64,000 bases of DNA from Escherichia coli (lineage in GTDB: Bacteria > Pseudomonadota > Gammaproteobacteria > Enterobacterales > Enterobacteriaceae). The stretch lies in NCBI RefSeq assembly GCF_045037415.1, contig NZ_CP173438.1; one strand, given 5' to 3'. The translations under genes were made by a program, and so were the position numbers. Below the pieces are notes generated by a model. The model was not told the DNA's origin and made no database searches. It saw only the letters and a list, made by a program, of their open reading frames with translations. Positions 29,098-60,931 of this stretch are shown in pieces (positions within the stretch are counted from its first letter, which is position 1; each line of letters begins with the position of its first letter).

Positions 29098-30838
29098 TGC
29101 TGCGGGCCGGTGTGGTCAGCGTGGCCATGACTTCATCCAGTGCGGCTTCCGGTACGCCGTCCGGGTACTGTGCCGTTAACTGGCGGTAATGTTCCGGCGT
29201 CCAGGTAAGGCCGTCGGCGCTGAACTTATCGCGCAGGGCTTTCGCGGCCTCCACATGAGTCATGGGACGTTGTTCAGTGCGCGGCCCGCGTACGTCAGAG
29301 GCCTGACCACGCTTCGGCATATAGGCCGGAAGTGTGGTGTCGTCGATATGTTTATACGGGTCAAGCCGCCCGCCGAACGGCAGCGCCTTCGCCTTGCGTG
29401 CGGCGGCTGCATCTGCGGCGTTGTCTGTACCGGTAACCAGCGCTTCGGTTTCTTTTGCCGCCATCTGTGCCGGGGTTTCCGGCAGGGCTTTGTAACTTTC
29501 GCCAAATACCGCCGCGCCTTCAGCAAAGCCAAACTCGTTCTTTCTGACCTCTTCGACCAGGAAGAACGTCTCGTGGCCGTCCTCACCGGTCAGAACCACC
29601 TGTGCCACATCGCTGCGCCATGGGTTACGGGTAATCATCAGTTTTTCACCAACCAGTACGCCCGGTACCGTTGATACGTCAAATTCAGTGCCCCGGAACG
29701 AGACACGAAGTTTTGGCGTGACTTTGCGGAGTTCTGGTGCCGCCACAGCCAGTTCACGACATACCTCAACGGAAGGCGCTTTTTTCAGCTGCTCAGCAGT
29801 AATCTTCAGCCAGATATCCGTGCGGGTTTTACCGTGGCGGCTGTGAACAGCCGTGGCGTTAAAGTGGCTGCGCCATTTCGCGGCCAGCGCGTTGAGTTCT
29901 TCCAGACTGTGAACCGGCCGGAACTTCAGACCCGGCTCCAGCTTGCGTTCGATAATGTCACGCGCCTTTTCCACCTGTCCGGTGGCGCGGGCGTTATGCG
30001 GCTTGTGCGCTATCAGGTCGATGCCCAGTGAGCGGCACATGTTTTTCGTCATACCCGCGGTGTTTGCCGAGCCGGGGTCGAGATAGAGTATTTTCGGCAC
30101 GCCGTGCAGCACGTCTGCGCCGCCACGCTCCTGCATGGCGTTGATAAGCACAGAACACAGGTTCTCACCTGATTCCGCGCCCGTCACATACTCAACGTAA
30201 ATCCAGCCGCTGGCATGGTCGGTAATCTCGTAACTCCACACGCGGTCACTGGCGATACGGGCAAGGTTAGCGGGCTTGTTCTTGTAGAACTTCGCGCTGT
30301 CCATCACCTGCAGCCCTTTATGTCCATTGCTCAGGTAGTAAAGCGTGCAGAGTGAGGCGTCAATCTGCCAGACATGATTGGGATGCAGACTGGCCACTTC
30401 GGTATGTGGTGCAGGGGCATCCAGTTGTTCCGGGTGCAGGCCATAGTTACGCAGAGCACGGCTGATGGCATCTTCAGACAACGGGAAAAACTCACTGGTG
30501 GTTTCATCTGTTCTGCCTGCGGTGATAAAGCCGTTAGCCCGCAGGGTTTCCACTGCATCTGCGATGGAATAGAGACGCTTACCGTTCTTGCGGGTGGCCT
30601 CACGCAGTGTGGCAGATATCAGCGCGGCTTCGTCGCGGGTCAGGGCGCTGCGCCCGGCATCGGCGCGTTTTTTGCGTTTATCAGTCACAGATACCTCCTT
30701 CAGCCTGCGCAGCAGAGTGGCGCGGGACATGCCAAGTTCAGCACAGGCAGCGTCGTATATTGCACCGCGTTTACCATGCCCCGCGTCACGTGCCGCGCGG
30801 GCTGTTTCAACCAGTTTTTCAGTCAGTGCCGGGGTCAT
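29069..30838 (-). CDS. DDE transposase (Mu A-like, rve/integrase core)
   Basis: 589 aa; N-terminal HTH; catalytic core HVWQIDASL...YLDPGSANTAG...ATGQVE consistent with D,D,E triad. Confidence 0.8.
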   Translation of the reverse strand: MTPALTEKLVETARAARDAGHGKRGAIYDAACAELGMSRATLLRRLKEVSVTDKRKKRADAGRSALTRDEAALISATLREATRKNGKRLYSIADAVETLRANGFITAGRTDETTSEFFPLSEDAISRALRNYGLHPEQLDAPAPHTEVASLHPNHVWQIDASLCTLYYLSNGHKGLQVMDSAKFYKNKPANLARIASDRVWSYEITDHASGWIYVEYVTGAESGENLCSVLINAMQERGGADVLHGVPKILYLDPGSANTAGMTKNMCRSLGIDLIAHKPHNARATGQVEKARDIIERKLEPGLKFRPVHSLEELNALAAKWRSHFNATAVHSRHGKTRTDIWLKITAEQLKKAPSVEVCRELAVAAPELRKVTPKLRVSFRGTEFDVSTVPGVLVGEKLMITRNPWRSDVAQVVLTGEDGHETFFLVEEVRKNEFGFAEGAAVFGESYKALPETPAQMAAKETEALVTGTDNAADAAAARKAKALPFGGRLDPYKHIDDTTLPAYMPKRGQASDVRGPRTEQRPMTHVEAAKALRDKFSADGLTWTPEHYRQLTAQYPDGVPEAALDEVMATLTTPARSSVISIVNGN

Positions 30839-35495: not shown

Positions 35496-35625
35496 ATCGT
35501 ATTCTCCTCTGTGAATAATTCATCGTTTATCCTGCACATCCCGTATCCCCGGCTCTCTTAACGCGCTTTAAAATCCTTCGCGCCCTGTATTTGTGATGCT
35601 GTCTCCACCAGATAAGGAGACACAC

Positions 35626-41620: not shown

Positions 41621-42422
41621 ACTGGCGTACTGCATGACGCTTCCCCCGAAGCGGGCAATCAACTACCTGAAGTCCAAAGGATATCAGATTACCTGGGACT
41701 GGGAAGAAATGTGGCAGGAGGCCCATGCCCGCGCCTTTACCGTTGCTAAAGTGACCCGCCTGGATATCCTGGAAGATATTCGCGGGGCACTGCAGCAGGC
41801 TGTCGATGAAGGAAAAACCGATCGCTGGTTCCGGCAGGAGCTGGAGCCGGTGCTGAAGCGTAAGGGATGGTGGGGACCACGTGACACGACTGACCCGGTA
41901 ACGGGTGAGCCGGTCACCATTCAGCAGGGCAGTCCGTGGCGGCTCGATACCATCTTTCGCACCAATATGTCCGTACTCTACAGCGCCGGTCGTTGGGCGG
42001 AACAGATGGAAAACGTCGACGACAGGCCGTACTGGATGTATACCGGCATCAACGACAGCCATACCCGCAGGAGCCATCTGGCGCTGCATGGTCTGGTGCT
42101 GCGCTGGGATGACCCGTTCTGGCAGGCATTTTACCCGCCGAACGGCTGGCGCTGCCGCTGTAGTGTTATTGCCCTGAGTGCGGCGGATGTACGTGCCCGT
42201 GGCCTGAAGGTTATCAGCTCCGGCTCTGCCATGGGCCAGGAACTGAAACTGGTCTCAGAGAAAACCGGCGAAATGCGGAACGTGGCCACCTTTAATACCG
42301 GCACCACGAAGGTGACCACCGACGTCGGCTGGTCTTATGCTCCGGGGGCAGCATACCGTCCCGACCTGGCCCGCTATCAGGGTACGCTTCAGCCACTGGC
42401 ACAACAGGAACTGAGAGGATAA
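41601..42422 (+). CDS. Head morphogenesis protein (Mu F-like)
   Basis: ORF 41574..42422; ATG at 41601; follows portal. Confidence 0.6.
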   Translation: MSVTTAELAYCMTLPPKRAINYLKSKGYQITWDWEEMWQEAHARAFTVAKVTRLDILEDIRGALQQAVDEGKTDRWFRQELEPVLKRKGWWGPRDTTDPVTGEPVTIQQGSPWRLDTIFRTNMSVLYSAGRWAEQMENVDDRPYWMYTGINDSHTRRSHLALHGLVLRWDDPFWQAFYPPNGWRCRCSVIALSAADVRARGLKVISSGSAMGQELKLVSEKTGEMRNVATFNTGTTKVTTDVGWSYAPGAAYRPDLARYQGTLQPLAQQELRG

Positions 42423-42424
42423 CA

Positions 42425-42883
42425 ATGGCTTCCGATAACCTGGTCAGTATCACCATTAACGATAAGTCCCTGCGCCGGAGCCTCCGTGCGCTGGATCTTG
42501 CTGCCACAGACCTGGAGCCCGCGATGCGCAAAATCGCCGGAACCCTGCTGGCGGAAACACAGTTTAACTTTCTTGATGAGGGGCGTCCGGGGTGGATGCC
42601 CTCGCTGGCAGCGGAAGAACGTGACGGGCAGACACTGCAGGATACCGGGCGTCTGATGGGGTCAGTATCAACCGACCATGACGACCGGCAGGCTGTTGTG
42701 GGGACCAACGTTGTTTACGGTGCCATTCACCAGTTCGGGGGTAAAACGGGGCGTAATGAGTCTGTTGAACTTCCGGCCCGCCCGTTCCTGCCGGTGACGG
42801 GGGATGGAGAACTACAGCCTGAAGTGGTAATCCCCATCCTCGATACCATTGTCCGCCATCTTGAATCAGCGGCCCGTCGCTGA
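42425..42883 (+). CDS. Virion morphogenesis protein (Mu G-like)
   Basis: 152 aa; position after F-like gene. Confidence 0.5.
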   Translation: MASDNLVSITINDKSLRRSLRALDLAATDLEPAMRKIAGTLLAETQFNFLDEGRPGWMPSLAAEERDGQTLQDTGRLMGSVSTDHDDRQAVVGTNVVYGAIHQFGGKTGRNESVELPARPFLPVTGDGELQPEVVIPILDTIVRHLESAARR

Positions 42884-43097
42884 GTTTTCTCTCTTCAGGC
42901 GGGTGATTTATCATTGCCAGCGAATGAGGGGCTGTATTACCTTTATAAAGGCTTTACAGCCTCTGTTTTATAACCGCCTCCGGTTCACCGCATTGCTTTC
43001 CCTGTCCTTCTCCCCTGATGTTTTCTAAAGCAGATTAAAATCGCCGGGCCTGCATTTCTCACAAACTGTCTCCGACAACATAACGCGGGACAGCAAA

Positions 43098-44213
43098 ATG
43101 TCAGCCATTCACATTTTTAAAGCCGGTACTCATACCGATATGCACGGCAAAAAACTGCCGTTCACGCCAGACGATCTTGCCGCCTGCGTGAAAGCCTATG
43201 ACCCGTCCGTCCATGAAGCACCACTCGTGATTGGTCATCCCAGAACGGAAGACCCGGCGTGGGGCTGGGTGAAAGCCCTGTCGCTCAGCGGCGTCGATCT
43301 GATGGCAGAGCCTGCCCAGCTGGACCCGCAGTTTGCTGAGATGGTCACCGACGGACGATTCAAAAAAGTGTCCGCCTCTTTCTACCTCCCGGATTCACCG
43401 TCCAATCCGAAGCCCGGCGTGCTCTACCTTCGCCATGTGGGCTTTCTCGGGGCACAGCCACCTTCCGTCAAGGGGCTGAAACAGGTGTCCTTCAGTGAGC
43501 AGGAAGAAGGTGTGGTGGAGTTCGCCGACTGGCAGGCCATCACGAATGCCTCCCTGTGGGGAAAGCTGCGCGATTTTCTGATCGCCCGCTTCAGTCTGGA
43601 CGAGGCAGAAAAAGTCCTGCCGGAATGGCAGCTCAACAGTCTGCGCGAAGAGGCGTACCGCGACACACTGTCGCAGGATGCAGCAGGTGCACAATTCAGT
43701 GAGACAGGCCCGGGGCCGTCTTCCGCAAGTAACGAGGAATCATCGATGACAAAAGAAGAGATTGAAGCCCTTCAGGAGGAGAACCGCCGCCTGAAGCAGC
43801 AGGCTGCTGATCGCGATGCGCGTGATGCACAGGTCAGACAGGAGCAACTGCATAAGGACAATGTGGCCTTTGCAGAAAAACTGGTCGCAGAGGGCCGTCT
43901 GGCTCCCCGCGCCTCCTCCGTGGTGGTTGCCCTGCTGGATGCCGTCGCCGGTGGCGACAAGCCGGTGGAGTTTGCTGAGGGGGAAAGCCGCACACCGCTG
44001 GCCACCGCCTTTCGTTCATTGCTCTCCGACGGGGAGCCGGTGATGAATTTCGCCGAACAGGCCACAAAAGAGCGTGTCGGCGACACGGTGAAGGTGGATG
44101 TGGCAGAGTTTGCGGAAGCCGATCCTGAGCGTCTGGCCCTGCATCAGAAAGCAGTGGCCCTGTCCAAAAAAGAAGGCATCAGCTATGAGGCTGCTGTCGC
44201 ACGCTGCCTGTAA
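43098..44213 (+). CDS. Head protease/scaffold (Mu I-like)
   Basis: 371 aa; precedes major head gene; acidic helical C-terminal half consistent with scaffold. Confidence 0.55.
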   Translation: MSAIHIFKAGTHTDMHGKKLPFTPDDLAACVKAYDPSVHEAPLVIGHPRTEDPAWGWVKALSLSGVDLMAEPAQLDPQFAEMVTDGRFKKVSASFYLPDSPSNPKPGVLYLRHVGFLGAQPPSVKGLKQVSFSEQEEGVVEFADWQAITNASLWGKLRDFLIARFSLDEAEKVLPEWQLNSLREEAYRDTLSQDAAGAQFSETGPGPSSASNEESSMTKEEIEALQEENRRLKQQAADRDARDAQVRQEQLHKDNVAFAEKLVAEGRLAPRASSVVVALLDAVAGGDKPVEFAEGESRTPLATAFRSLLSDGEPVMNFAEQATKERVGDTVKVDVAEFAEADPERLALHQKAVALSKKEGISYEAAVARCL

Positions 44214-48914: not shown

Positions 48915-49011
48915 CATCACAGGGGCTCCGGCCCCTTCTTCTTAATCTCCTTTAATATCCGTCACGCGCTTCTCCCGACATACTGCCCTGAACTTACACA
49001 GGAGCACAATC

Positions 49012-55287: not shown

Positions 55288-55341
55288 GCTTTTTAAACGC
55301 CTTTAATATCAGCGTTCCCGCACGGGGGCAATACTGCCCCC

Positions 55342-55689
55342 ATGAAAACAACCTCAGTATTCTGGCAACCAGCCCTGCAGGCTCCCGGCGAAATTGTCCG
55401 GGGGCTGGATGATATCCGGCAGGCGATTCAAATTATCCTGCGGACTCCCCGCGGCAGCGACCCGCATCGCCCGGAGTTCGGCAGCAATCTGCATCTTTAT
55501 ATCGACTGGCCTGTAGACCGGGCCATTCCGCATGTGGTGCGCGAATCCGTCGATGCCATCCGGCGCTGGGAGCCCCGCTGCCAGCTTATGTCAGTTAAAC
55601 CCGCCGTCGACGGCGAACATCTTACGCTCCGGGTGAGCTGGAAAGGCTCAGACGGACAGACCCGGACTCAGGAGCTGCTATGGCGCTGA
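55342..55689 (+). CDS. Baseplate wedge protein (gpW/gp25-like)
   Basis: 115 aa; precedes J-like gene. Confidence 0.5.
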   Translation: MKTTSVFWQPALQAPGEIVRGLDDIRQAIQIILRTPRGSDPHRPEFGSNLHLYIDWPVDRAIPHVVRESVDAIRRWEPRCQLMSVKPAVDGEHLTLRVSWKGSDGQTRTQELLWR

Positions 55690-59308: not shown

Positions 59309-59770
59309 TCACGCCGCCCTCACGATATAGTTAAATGCGATATTGCGGGGGCGAGCTGATACATAAGCCCACCAGTCATATCTTTGTGCACCTTTAGAGG
59401 ATGCATCAAATATCCACTTTTTGCCATTTAAGACCCCCAGTTGATTAGAGGTTAAAGCGTCACCAAATCCGTATTGTGTAGAGCCGAGCGAACTGATATC
59501 TCCGGTATCATTATCATCAAAACCGGATACGATAGTCCCTTCCTGAAATGAAAGTAGCGCACGCCCGGTATCAACCTTGCGACCACCGTCCCATCCACGG
59601 ATAAACTCACCGCGCAAATCGGGAAGACGGAGGGTCGGGTAGACTCTGACCAGAACAGGATATTGTTCTTTGGTGAACGTAGCTCCGTTGCACTGTAACC
59701 AGCCTGCTGGCGGTGTGGCGGTGGGCCATGGAACCGGTACACCAACAGGCAATGCAGAGCCTTCCCCCAA
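59309..59770 (-). CDS. Alternative tail-fibre C-terminal cassette 2 (inverted, promoterless)
   Basis: 153 aa; begins GEGSALPVGVPVPWPTATPPAGWL..., ends RPRNIAFNYIVRAA, both matching the resident fibre C-terminus; starts at crossover site 2. Confidence 0.6.
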   Translation of the reverse strand: MGEGSALPVGVPVPWPTATPPAGWLQCNGATFTKEQYPVLVRVYPTLRLPDLRGEFIRGWDGGRKVDTGRALLSFQEGTIVSGFDDNDTGDISSLGSTQYGFGDALTSNQLGVLNGKKWIFDASSKGAQRYDWWAYVSARPRNIAFNYIVRAA

Positions 59771-59787
59771 ACCAACGTTTCTATGCC
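59762..59787. other. Candidate invertase crossover site 2 (inverted relative to site 1)
   Basis: TTCCCCCAAACC-AA-CGTTTCTATGCC. Confidence 0.5.
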
Positions 59788-60209
59788 GCCCTTACGATGT
59801 AATTAAACGCAATGTTACGGGGACGAATGGTCACATAATTAACCCCATCGCCTCGCGAAGGACCTGCAAATGAAAAACGGGAGAATCCAGGTTGGTTGTC
59901 AACGATTTGGTCATAGTTATTGATTGAATGACCAGACCCAATGTCAAAATTACCTGCGTAATGAGAAAAACTTGTACCATCCTGCCGTGAAAGCAGATCG
60001 CGCCCTGTATCCACTTTTCGCCCGTCGTCCCATCCACGGATAAACTCACCGCGTAAATCGGGAAGACGGAGGGTCGGGTAGACTCTGGCCAGAACAGGAT
60101 ATTGTTCTTTTGTAAAGGCGCGCCCGTCGCACTTTAACCAGCCTGCTGGCGGTGTGGCAGTGGGCCACGGAACAGGTACACCAACGGGCAGCGCCGAGCC
60201 TTCCCCCAA
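59781..60209 (-). CDS. Alternative tail-fibre C-terminal cassette 3 (inverted, promoterless)
   Basis: 142 aa; first 70 residues nearly identical to the resident variable part; ends RPRNIAFNYIVRAA. Confidence 0.6.
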   Translation of the reverse strand: MGEGSALPVGVPVPWPTATPPAGWLKCDGRAFTKEQYPVLARVYPTLRLPDLRGEFIRGWDDGRKVDTGRDLLSRQDGTSFSHYAGNFDIGSGHSINNYDQIVDNQPGFSRFSFAGPSRGDGVNYVTIRPRNIAFNYIVRAA

Positions 60210-60227
60210 ACCAACGTTTATCTCTCA
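60202..60227. other. Candidate invertase crossover site 3 (same orientation as site 2)
   Basis: TTCCCCCAAACC-AA-CGTTTATCTCTC; immediately upstream of invertase gene. Confidence 0.5.
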
Positions 60228-60280
60228 AATCCTCCCCACATTATCTCAGTACTTTAACCACTCAAAAGGGAGTATTTTTA

Positions 60281-60853
60281 ATGCTGATTGGCTACATACG
60301 TGTGTCAACAAATGACCAAAACACAGATTTGCAACGCAATGCATTAATGTGCGCAGGATGTGAACAGATTTTTGAGGACAAAATGAGCGGAACCAAGTCG
60401 GAACGACCAGGCCTGAAACGCGCTTTAAAGTGCCTTAAAAGAGGGGATACATTGGTGGTCTGGAAGCTGGATCGGTTGGGTAGAAGAATGAAACACCTCA
60501 TTGCTCTCACAGAAGAGCTACGCGCAAAAGGTGTCAATTTTCGCAGTCTGACGGATTCAATCGATACCAGCACTCCGATGGGAAGGTTCTTTTTTCATAT
60601 GATGGGTGCACTGGCAGAAATGGAGCGTGAACTGATAGTTGAGCGCACGCTGGCTGGACTGGCTGCTGCGCGAGCACAAGGAAGAGTTGGAGGACGTCGC
60701 CCGAAACTGACGAAGGAGCAGCATGAGCAGATCGCAAGATTGCTCCAGAAAGGGTATGACAGAAAGCGGCTGGCAATTATCTATGATATTGGACTGTCAA
60801 CGATCTACCGCTATCACCCTGTTGGGACTGTCATAACGCAACCTGAAATGTAA
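60281..60853 (+). CDS. Serine-recombinase DNA invertase (Gin/Hin/Pin/Cin family)
   Basis: Within ORF 60152..60853; ATG at 60281 after SD aaaggga; N-terminal MLIGYIRVSTNDQNTDLQ with catalytic Ser; C-terminal HTH. Confidence 0.85.
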   Translation: MLIGYIRVSTNDQNTDLQRNALMCAGCEQIFEDKMSGTKSERPGLKRALKCLKRGDTLVVWKLDRLGRRMKHLIALTEELRAKGVNFRSLTDSIDTSTPMGRFFFHMMGALAEMERELIVERTLAGLAAARAQGRVGGRRPKLTKEQHEQIARLLQKGYDRKRLAIIYDIGLSTIYRYHPVGTVITQPEM

Positions 60854-60910
60854 TTCTTTTTCAAATAATGAAACGCCGCGTGGATGCCATTTATCGCACA
60901 AGATAGAGTG

Positions 60911-60931
60911 CATTTATCGCGCGGCGCATCA
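60911..60931 (-). repeat. Prophage right terminal inverted repeat (reverse complement TGATGCGCCGCGCGATAAATG)
   Basis: Ends in CA at 60931; a second GCGATAAATG-like motif at 60888..60897. Confidence 0.6.

Follow-up and report, generated by a model that had tools for sequence, protein, structure and literature searches.

Is the 214-bp stretch between two late genes of a prophage spare room into which genes can be inserted, or is it a working part of the element? We address this question for positions 42884-43097 of the analysed piece of Escherichia coli DNA (64,000 nucleotides, hereafter the window), a non-coding gap between a G-like gene and a protease gene. The initial annotation delimited this gap exactly and saw in it a nested palindrome, perhaps a terminator plus late promoter, and perhaps an empty hotspot. 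We conclude that the gap is probably the BcepMu-family counterpart of the control region between genes G and I of phage Mu, with a promoter, a terminator and possibly a gyrase site. Lying physically midway along a transposable prophage, it would mark the point where one late operon gives way to the next.

The prophage is of the BcepMu type and spans 37,045 bp (23887-60931, plus strand), with its centre at 42409. Comparison with the empty site in K-12 gives its termini as TGATTAGACTTGAGATAAATGA ... GCATTTATCGCGCGGCGCATCA, a target duplication of 6 bp (TTCTTC) and an insertion point at the 5' end of ycaL. Escherichia phage PhiKM (Bcepmuvirus) matches a 1.4-kb query around the gap (42300-43700) with 100% identity, and its annotation has the genes in the same order as the prophage; the annotation of strain EC958 was also used to assign the prophage. 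The query region was found in 637 of 5426 complete E. coli genomes (about 12%), among them EC958, an ST131 strain.

The gene upstream of the gap encodes a G-like virion morphogenesis protein, or Neck1 (42425-42883, plus strand; 152 aa; PF05069 Phage_tail_S, E 4.9e-23; PHROG 26). It is the final gene of the first late operon. The gene downstream encodes the head maturation protease (43098-44213, plus strand; 371 aa; PHROG 976, E 2.3e-163). It opens the second late operon and is equivalent to Mu I; BcepMu gp32 is annotated as 'Mu I equivalent'. On the minus strand, at 24050-24439, lies a gene for a Mor-family transcription activator (Pfam PF08765 Mor, E 1.3e-43). Its product has 54% identity to BcepMu gp01, from which it hardly differs in the helix-turn-helix, and 30-37% identity to Mor and C of Mu. 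The Mor-family protein is presumed to be the activator of the late promoters. We found no description of the late regulation of this prophage in the literature that we searched.

The gap had been described as the only sizeable one in the late arm. It is the largest, yet not the sole one: others measure 130, 97 and 54 bp, and the 130-bp gap lies upstream of the holin gene. A 157-bp stretch precedes the tape-measure gene; at the corresponding place BcepMu annotates a tail-chaperone frameshift extension. The length of the gap between the G-like and protease genes is 214 bp in six E. coli genomes, KP12 and Phi06_2974B, 201-205 bp in a third enterobacterial lineage (IMG/VR loci L039-L045), 202-214 bp in BcepMu, phiE255 and vB_E427, 214 bp in Stenotrophomonas phage Bhz63 and 284 bp in Chromohalobacter phage YPCBV-1.

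About half of the gap is invariant across the three enterobacterial lineages, whereas third-codon (synonymous) identity in the flanking genes is 0.61-0.79 across the same lineages. Four blocks are invariant or nearly so: CGGGyGATTTA; CCTTTATAAAGG (plus TTTACAGCC); TTTTCTAAAGCAGATTAAAA; and a leader, ACTGTCyCCGACAAC..CGGGACAGCAAAATG. The most variable part of the gap lies between the palindrome and the 20-nt block TTTTCTAAAGCAGATTAAAA. This variable spacer (42962-43012) is about 50% identical between lineages, with compensating 1-nt indels, and includes the T-rich stretch TGTTTTATAA (42964-42973) that the initial annotation had correctly placed after the palindrome. With blocks this constant next to genes whose synonymous sites are only 61-79% identical, the gap is under selection as non-coding DNA and is not spare.

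The downstream third of the gap would be a Mor-dependent late promoter, P_I, a reading that is well supported and that we infer from strong comparative evidence. The block TTTTCTAAAGCAGATTAAAA (43021-43040, plus strand) is identical at 20 of 20 positions in the three lineages. It contains a 14-bp activator box of the TTAA-N6-TTAA type, CTAAAGCAGATTAA (43025-43038, plus strand), and exactly 23 nt after the box follows a -10-like hexamer, CAAACT (43062-43067, plus strand). The same box stands before the three other late operons, in sister promoters that are all on the plus strand: one for the holin gene (35558-35600; box TTAACGCGCTTTAA, 23 nt, GATGCT), one for the tail assembly and tape-measure genes (48942-48984; box TTAATCTCCTTTAA, 23 nt, CATACT) and one for the gpW-like baseplate gene (55293-55335; box TTAAACGCCTTTAA, 23 nt, AATACT, 6 nt, ATG). 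The mRNA of the gpW-like gene is predicted to be leaderless. Upstream of the promoter at 48942-48984 there is also a terminator, GGGGCTCCGGCCCC with a T-run.

The likeness of the late gaps is well above chance. The four late-arm gaps compared, those upstream of the holin, protease, tail-assembly and gpW genes, have in common an ungapped 18-nt segment with 10 identical columns; the maximum in 500 dinucleotide shuffles was 8. Aligned with KP12, BcepMu, the Ralstonia phage and IMG/VR loci, the module reads as an nTAA-N6-TTAA box, 23 nt and the hexamer. At a distance of 23 nt, A2 and T6 of the hexamer are kept in all 21 family promoters; among the remaining offsets between 0 and 44, none exceeds 6 of 21. 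A degenerate pattern of the full module has exactly four sites each in the window, BcepMu and KP12 (shuffles, at most 0.12), every one of them on the late strand and within the four late gaps. The same pattern has no site in Mu.

Start codons add to this picture. In 8 of the 21 promoters an ATG lies 6-7 nt past the hexamer, namely in P_I of BcepMu, of loci L084, L078, L081 and L089 and of the Ralstonia phage, and in P_base of E. coli and Klebsiella. A start codon follows similarly soon in P_base of BcepMu (ATG, 6 nt) and in P_I of L052 (GTG, 7 nt). Such a distance is what is expected of the -10 element of a leaderless mRNA.

For the window itself, transcription from P_I is predicted to start near 43074. 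The centre of the box would then fall near -42, assuming a start 7 nt past the hexamer. In Mu, the site of the activators Mor and C lies just upstream of a poor -35 (PMC4461284; bioRxiv 10.1101/2025.05.02.651988). Here the Mor-family activator would bind the 14-bp box at 43025-43038, and the near-unchanged helix-turn-helix that it has in common with BcepMu gp01 fits a conserved activator box. The bound activator would recruit host RNA polymerase to a promoter without a usable -35, the -10 being CAAACT. Transcription from near 43074 would cover the protease, capsid and tail genes, and the same module would act before the lysis, tail and baseplate operons.

A second candidate for the -10 overlaps the box. 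TAAAAT (43036-43041) is itself a good -10 and may provide an alternative start about 25 nt upstream, in the E. coli lineage only. Its counterpart in the KP12 lineage, lineage 3 and BcepMu is TAAAAG, and TAAAAT is hence more likely to be part of the activator site. TAAWAT as a general -10 was set aside because other lineages have TAAAAG or TGAAAG, whereas the hexamer at 23 nt keeps its two positions throughout.

The leader holds an inverted repeat, CTGTCTC (43066-43072) / GGGACAG (43087-43093), on the plus strand, with a fold of -12.6 kcal/mol (z -2.2). Variation between T and C at 43071 preserves a G-U or G-C pair in this repeat, and the 3' arm contains the Shine-Dalgarno sequence GGGA, 7 nt upstream of the protease ATG. 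The 5' arm would be missing from a transcript begun at about 43074. A similar repeat, TGTCTCC/GGAGACA, lies upstream of the holin gene.

The upstream part of the gap is dominated by the nested palindrome, which is there as first described: GGCTGTA (42930-42936) and TACAGCC (42955-42961) enclose the perfect palindrome CCTTTATAAAGG (42940-42951). A repeat finder extends it to an imperfect palindrome of 19+19 nt (42927-42964, plus strand; arms 42927-42945 and 42946-42964) whose arms are 79% complementary. In its exact form the arm pattern occurs once in the window. Allowing up to 3 mismatches gives 4 matches where 1.9 are expected, so the arm pattern is weak on its own. A repeat search of the window turned up no second instance of either arm, of the inner palindrome or of block B.

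As RNA, the palindrome folds into a two-tier hairpin with a 10-bp outer stem, a 3x3 internal loop and a 4-bp inner stem. Its energy is -20 kcal/mol against -9.9 +/- 2.7 for shuffles (z -3.7), and none of 200 shuffles does as well. The hairpin of the KP12 lineage reaches -24.1 kcal/mol (z -4.7); there, a U-to-C change turns a G-U pair into G-C. The T-run is not conserved: the hairpin is followed by TGTTTTATAA here and by CGCTTTGCAC in the 86%-identical lineage. The tract 3' of the stem reads UGUUUUAU in the lineage of the window and CGCUUUGC in the KP12 lineage. A second terminator-like hairpin, TCAGCGGCCCGTCGCTGA followed by GTTTTCTCTCTT (42866-42895, plus strand; 7 pairs, 4 of them G-C, in a consensus scan), overlaps the stop codon of G. 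Its sequence is kept in the E. coli and Klebsiella lineages, but it is also coding and so its conservation is uninformative. The nested palindrome and the hairpin at the G stop most likely constitute the RNA terminator region of the lysis-packaging operon, a reading that we hold with moderate confidence.

A terminator role does not explain why ten nucleotides of the palindrome are invariant. The core TTTATAAAGG (42942-42951, within CCTTTATAAAGG) occurs in all of the 30+ distinct BcepMu-type gaps examined, although the flanks differ. Its carriers are the E. coli and Klebsiella lineages, BcepMu, phiE255, Ralstonia phage YO107_2 and the IMG/VR loci L074-L086 and L089, and it is single-copy in the window, BcepMu and KP12. 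The outer arms are replaced or absent in two cases, lineage 3 and the Ralstonia phage, where different stems stand upstream of the UUUAUAAAGG core; in lineage 3, a 13-bp G+C hairpin stands just upstream of the core instead of the outer arms. We also considered the spacing from GTGATT to the centre of the palindrome (40, 31 and 22 bp in the three lineages) as helical phasing or a hidden frame. Neither idea was kept, as no protein sequence is conserved and the spacing in the Burkholderia type is different.

Could the centre of the prophage also be a gyrase site? Mu and FluMu are reported to have a strong gyrase site between G and I (PMC2628397; PMC10052514). The same two sources and PMC3820752 describe the central strong gyrase site (SGS) in the G-I interval of Mu as speeding the synapsis of the ends and replication. 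[quoted passage not shown]

The candidate cleavage core in the window is the conserved block GGCGGGTGATTTATC (42898-42912), with a putative cut near 42904-42906 by analogy with Mu. GCGGGTGATTTAT lies 22 bp past the G stop, at 51.3% of the length of the prophage; the Mu cut lies at 48.7% and the BcepMu gap at 51.0%. Within the block, 11 consecutive nt (GCGGGTGATTT) are identical to the middle of the 133-bp fragment that represents the Mu SGS in Sutormin 2019, and CGGGyGATTTA is invariant in the three enterobacterial lineages. Relative to the late genes, Mu has the core on the other strand, and the wild-type Mu sequence departs from it at one base and by one indel. Local alignment of the gap with the Mu SGS does not rise above shuffles (69 of 300 score as well), nor does alignment with the Sp18-type gap, and the candidate core is absent from the Burkholderia-type gaps. 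A GC/AT proxy built from the published gyrase motif consensus gives z of about 1.9 here, but it ranks the true Mu site only 231st in Mu and so lacks power; when the Mu template is correlated by GC/AT instead, the result is z 2.5 (rank 233 of 37,045). A deformability proxy, in which the palindrome-centred 35-mer fell at about the 1st percentile, was dropped because the dinucleotide scale did not reproduce the published Mu percentiles.

By analogy with Mu, we advance the tentative hypothesis that the region from GGCGGGTGATTTATC through the A/T-rich palindrome is a Mu-like central strong gyrase site, which we consider more doubtful than probable. The bound gyrase would supercoil the prophage into a loop and unite both ends for transposition, and the palindrome (42927-42964) would serve as the deformable 'right arm' of the candidate site. 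A specific 70-bp stretch is thereby put forward as a candidate for a second, sequence-independent central strong gyrase site. The TATA-like TTTATAAAGG lies at the genome midpoint of the BcepMu family, in phages of Burkholderia, Ralstonia, E. coli and Klebsiella hosts, and could be the core of a central topological element; we think this unlikely. The proposed element may be a gyrase site with the palindrome as G segment or wrapped arm, or another site of end synapsis. If true, it evolved independently of the sequence of the Mu SGS.

Other readings of the same DNA have to be weighed against a control region. In that of the initial annotation, the hairpin and the adjoining T-rich stretch are terminator and late promoter, and the remainder of the gap is an empty hotspot of the anti-CRISPR type; to us this appears decidedly improbable. 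The hairpin and its T-rich stretch are present, and the outline of a terminator plus a late promoter stands, matching the annotation of the Mu interval. The details do not: the T-rich stretch falls where the gap is least conserved, and it does not form the promoter. The predicted late promoter lies 60-130 bp further downstream, where the conserved module occupies 43021-43074, and it is of the type that depends on a Mor/C activator. As the initial annotation stated, the anti-CRISPR loci of Pseudomonas Mu-like phages do occupy this position, from G to the protease/scaffold gene (Pawluk 2014, PMC3993853). That the slot is an empty hotspot here is poorly supported, since about half of the gap is invariant and the gaps of relatives are conserved. 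In E. coli, 629 of the 637 genomes carry the interval as one uninterrupted match and thus have no insertion; one match below 80% that we examined is a truncated prophage. Among 60+ other relatives with the G-protease order (phages and IMG/VR loci) the gaps are 200-284 bp long, have no conserved ORFs and hold no cargo, with one exception. The initial annotation had named a conserved gap without inserted genes in related phages as evidence against itself, and what the relatives have comes close to this. The exception, the Burkholderia-type relative L086 (IMG/VR), has a two-gene cassette directly after G, made up of a gene with a Tlde1 domain (PF10908, E 1e-32) and an ORF for a hydrophobic product of 88 aa. 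This cassette shows that the G-protease interval is able to take cargo at its upstream edge; yet L086 keeps all of the conserved non-coding elements downstream of the cassette. It is more apt to call the gap in the window fully occupied than to call it an empty slot, and the G-protease gap is not to be read as spare room for cargo.

Two further explanations concern the palindrome and the coding capacity of the gap. As double-stranded DNA, CCTTTATAAAGG might be the binding site of a dimeric protein, such as a phage regulator or an IHF-like nucleoid protein, which might modulate P_I or organise the prophage in place of a role as RNA hairpin. A perfect palindrome in the E. coli lineages, with a core that stays invariant and single-copy while the flanking arms change, speaks for such a site, as does another TTATAA-centred palindrome, CGCGTTATAACGCG, in the same interval of a distant lineage. 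The IHF consensus is WATCAANNNNTTR, and TATAAAGGCTTTA fits it at all but one specified position; however, the IHF-type match fails in lineage 3 and in L081-type loci. No copy of the motif accompanies the other late promoters either, and the distance from core to box, counted on the gap sequences of relatives, varies between 66 and 79 bp, which leaves no fixed phasing to the promoter. Overall we hold a protein-binding role of this kind to be unlikely. It is very improbable indeed that the gap codes for a small product, be it a protein or an RNA. KP12 has a 41-aa ORF annotated in its gap, the window has a GTG-initiated ORF at 42903-43028, the frame past the G stop is open for 29 codons, and the fold of the gap as a whole is somewhat more stable than those of shuffles (z -2.6). 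But the start codon of the 41-aa ORF has become GCG in L039 and L043, and indels shift its frame in lineages 2 and 3; the read-through frame of G meets a TAA two codons past the TGA in L039, L043 and L045. With both frames broken in relatives, the coding potential of the gap was rejected. A Pfam search of the ORFs in the gap gave no match, an Rfam search of the gap gave no family at the gathering threshold (best 16.9 bits against 60), and GC-rich relatives show no protein-level conservation of the small ORFs in their gaps.

The reading of the gap as a control region between late operons thus has its most concrete part in the promoter. The architecture of a 14-bp box, 23 nt and a -10 is testable and applies to all four late operons throughout the BcepMu family, and for several of its members the late mRNAs are predicted to be leaderless.

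How does the gap compare with the corresponding intervals of known phages? In the Pseudomonas Mu-like phages of the JBD30 / D3112 group, the anti-CRISPR locus occupies the same interval, from the G homologue to the protease/scaffold gene (PMC3993853). The interval has no genes here or in any E. coli relative examined, and the cargo of L086 is a Tlde1-domain toxin-like gene with a small hydrophobic protein, not an acr-aca operon.

The gap between gp31 and gp32 of BcepMu is homologous to the one studied here. It is 202 bp long and contains TTTATAAAGGCTTTAC and GTAAAGCCGATTAAAAG; its alignment scores 22, compared with a maximum of 18 in 300 shuffles. BcepMu also has four late promoters of the same architecture. 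It differs in having another stem around the same core (CCCGTAAAG/CTTTACGGG), in lacking the GGGTGATTT core and in the position of the protease ATG, 7 nt past the -10, for which a leaderless mRNA is predicted.

The promoters Pmom and Plys of Mu provide a model for P_I. In Pmom, the C box TTATGCCCCAATAA has the same 4+6+4 geometry and lies 24 nt before the -10 TAAGAT. Pmom, Plys and the predicted promoter of the window all have a 14-bp dyad box that precedes a poor -35 and is separated by 23-24 nt from a non-consensus -10; a T-run beside the box is a further likeness, and ACTGyC is common to the -10 regions. In our own alignment, the -10 regions of Plys and P_I of Mu, TAGACTGCC and CTGACTGCT, resemble CAAACTGTC here. 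The half-sites differ in sequence, and the activator proteins are 30-37% identical.

The G-I region of Mu as a whole is the closest parallel in layout. The same two genes flank it, its length is 196 bp compared with 214 bp here, and both gaps lie near the centre of the genome (48.7% and 51.3%). The Mu record places three elements in the G-I gap: a gyrase cut 20 bp past the stop of G, a terminator prediction and P_I, a C-dependent late promoter. The elements of the window come in the same order from the G stop, with the candidate gyrase core at +22, the hairpin at +44 to +81 and the promoter at +138 to +191. The differences are that the upstream halves of the two gaps have no overall homology, that the box is TTAT-N6-ATAA in Mu and TTAA-N6-TTAA here, that Mu has a two-step cascade of Mor and then C where the prophage has one Mor/C homologue, and that TTTATAAAGG is missing from the Mu gap. 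The Mu SGS fragment and the window nevertheless have the core GCGGGTGATTT(T)AT in common, and the terminator that TransTermHP predicts in Mu has the same two-tier shape and the same relative position as the palindrome of the window. The kind of region that the gap represents is already understood from Mu, and it is TTTATAAAGG and the possible gyrase site alone that could prove to be more.

The distance from the predicted −10 hexamer to the start codon is only 6-7 nt at window 55330-55344, at 30811-30825 of the compared locus L011 and in the BcepMu/Ralstonia-type P_I promoters, the predicted late promoters of the protease operon (loci L011, L070, L078, L081, L084 and L089). Examples, hexamer first, are AATACT gcccccATG and CAACAT ggcggcATG. 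Such a spacing predicts translation from leaderless mRNAs, both for the gpW-like gene of each of the three phages (the window's prophage, KP12 and BcepMu) and for the protease gene of the non-enteric relatives.

The regions upstream of the window's holin gene (35599-35620) and protease gene (43066-43093) have CTGTCTCC in common. In both, an inverted repeat carries the Shine-Dalgarno within its 3′ arm (TGTCTCC/GGAGACA for the holin gene, CTGTCTC/GGGACAG for the protease gene). With a transcription start 7 nt downstream of the −10, the 5′ arm would lie outside the local promoter's transcript. Hence, the predicted hairpin over the Shine-Dalgarno could be limited to read-through transcripts.

The prophage ends (window 23887-23908 and 60910-60931) form the terminal inverted repeat TGAT-N9-GATAAATG, with a 6-bp target duplication, TTCTTC. 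The insertion point is the start of ycaL, an ORF annotated as 783 nt in EC958, longer than the 765 nt in K-12. At the right end (59309-60853), opposed tail-fibre and tail-fibre-assembly gene fragments adjoin a gene of the recombinase family (60281-60853), an arrangement suggestive of an invertible segment that sets host range, as in the G/Gin system of Mu; in KP12, a DNA invertase is annotated at the same end. The KP12 record itself (OM835952.1, "Klebsiella phage KP12 clone KP12_2") is filed under Vequintavirinae. At 34.9 kb, however filed, the sequence is that of a transposable phage of the BcepMu type and is collinear with the prophage in the window; it is probably not KP12 DNA but a prophage that was co-assembled with it.

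In one BcepMu-type prophage (L086, IMGVR_UViG_2754412364_000003), a two-gene cassette lies between G and the protease gene (2001-2817). One gene encodes a 161-aa protein with a Tlde1 domain (PF10908, E = 1.2e-32), from a family of L,D-transpeptidase-like toxins; the other, overlapping it, is an 88-aa hydrophobic ORF that could encode the immunity protein.

[quoted passage not shown] The window's prophage carries the G variant at this difference. According to a review, laboratories used a stronger allele, nuB103 (PMC10052514), which may account for the discrepancy.

In L056 (about 2035-2050) and L057 (about 2828-2842), of a distant lineage whose protease is 36% identical, the G-protease gap contains the perfect palindrome CGCGTTATAACGCG, different from the window's palindrome but with the same TTATAA centre. 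Bhz63 and L053/L054 have GTGTCnGACAC in place of a TTATAA-centred palindrome. In a Mu-like prophage of E. coli O157:H7 (L068), presumed to be Sp18-type, RefSeq annotates a "tRNA-OTHER" at 1150-1237, on the opposite strand and with F and G on either side. In its 176-bp G-protease gap (1750-1925), TTAA-like tetramers occur three times in phase, CTAA-N7-TTAA-N6-TTAAAATC. CTTCAGGCGsGTG is present in both this gap and the window. Unlike the window's late promoters, the gap lacks the layout of 23 nt plus hexamer.
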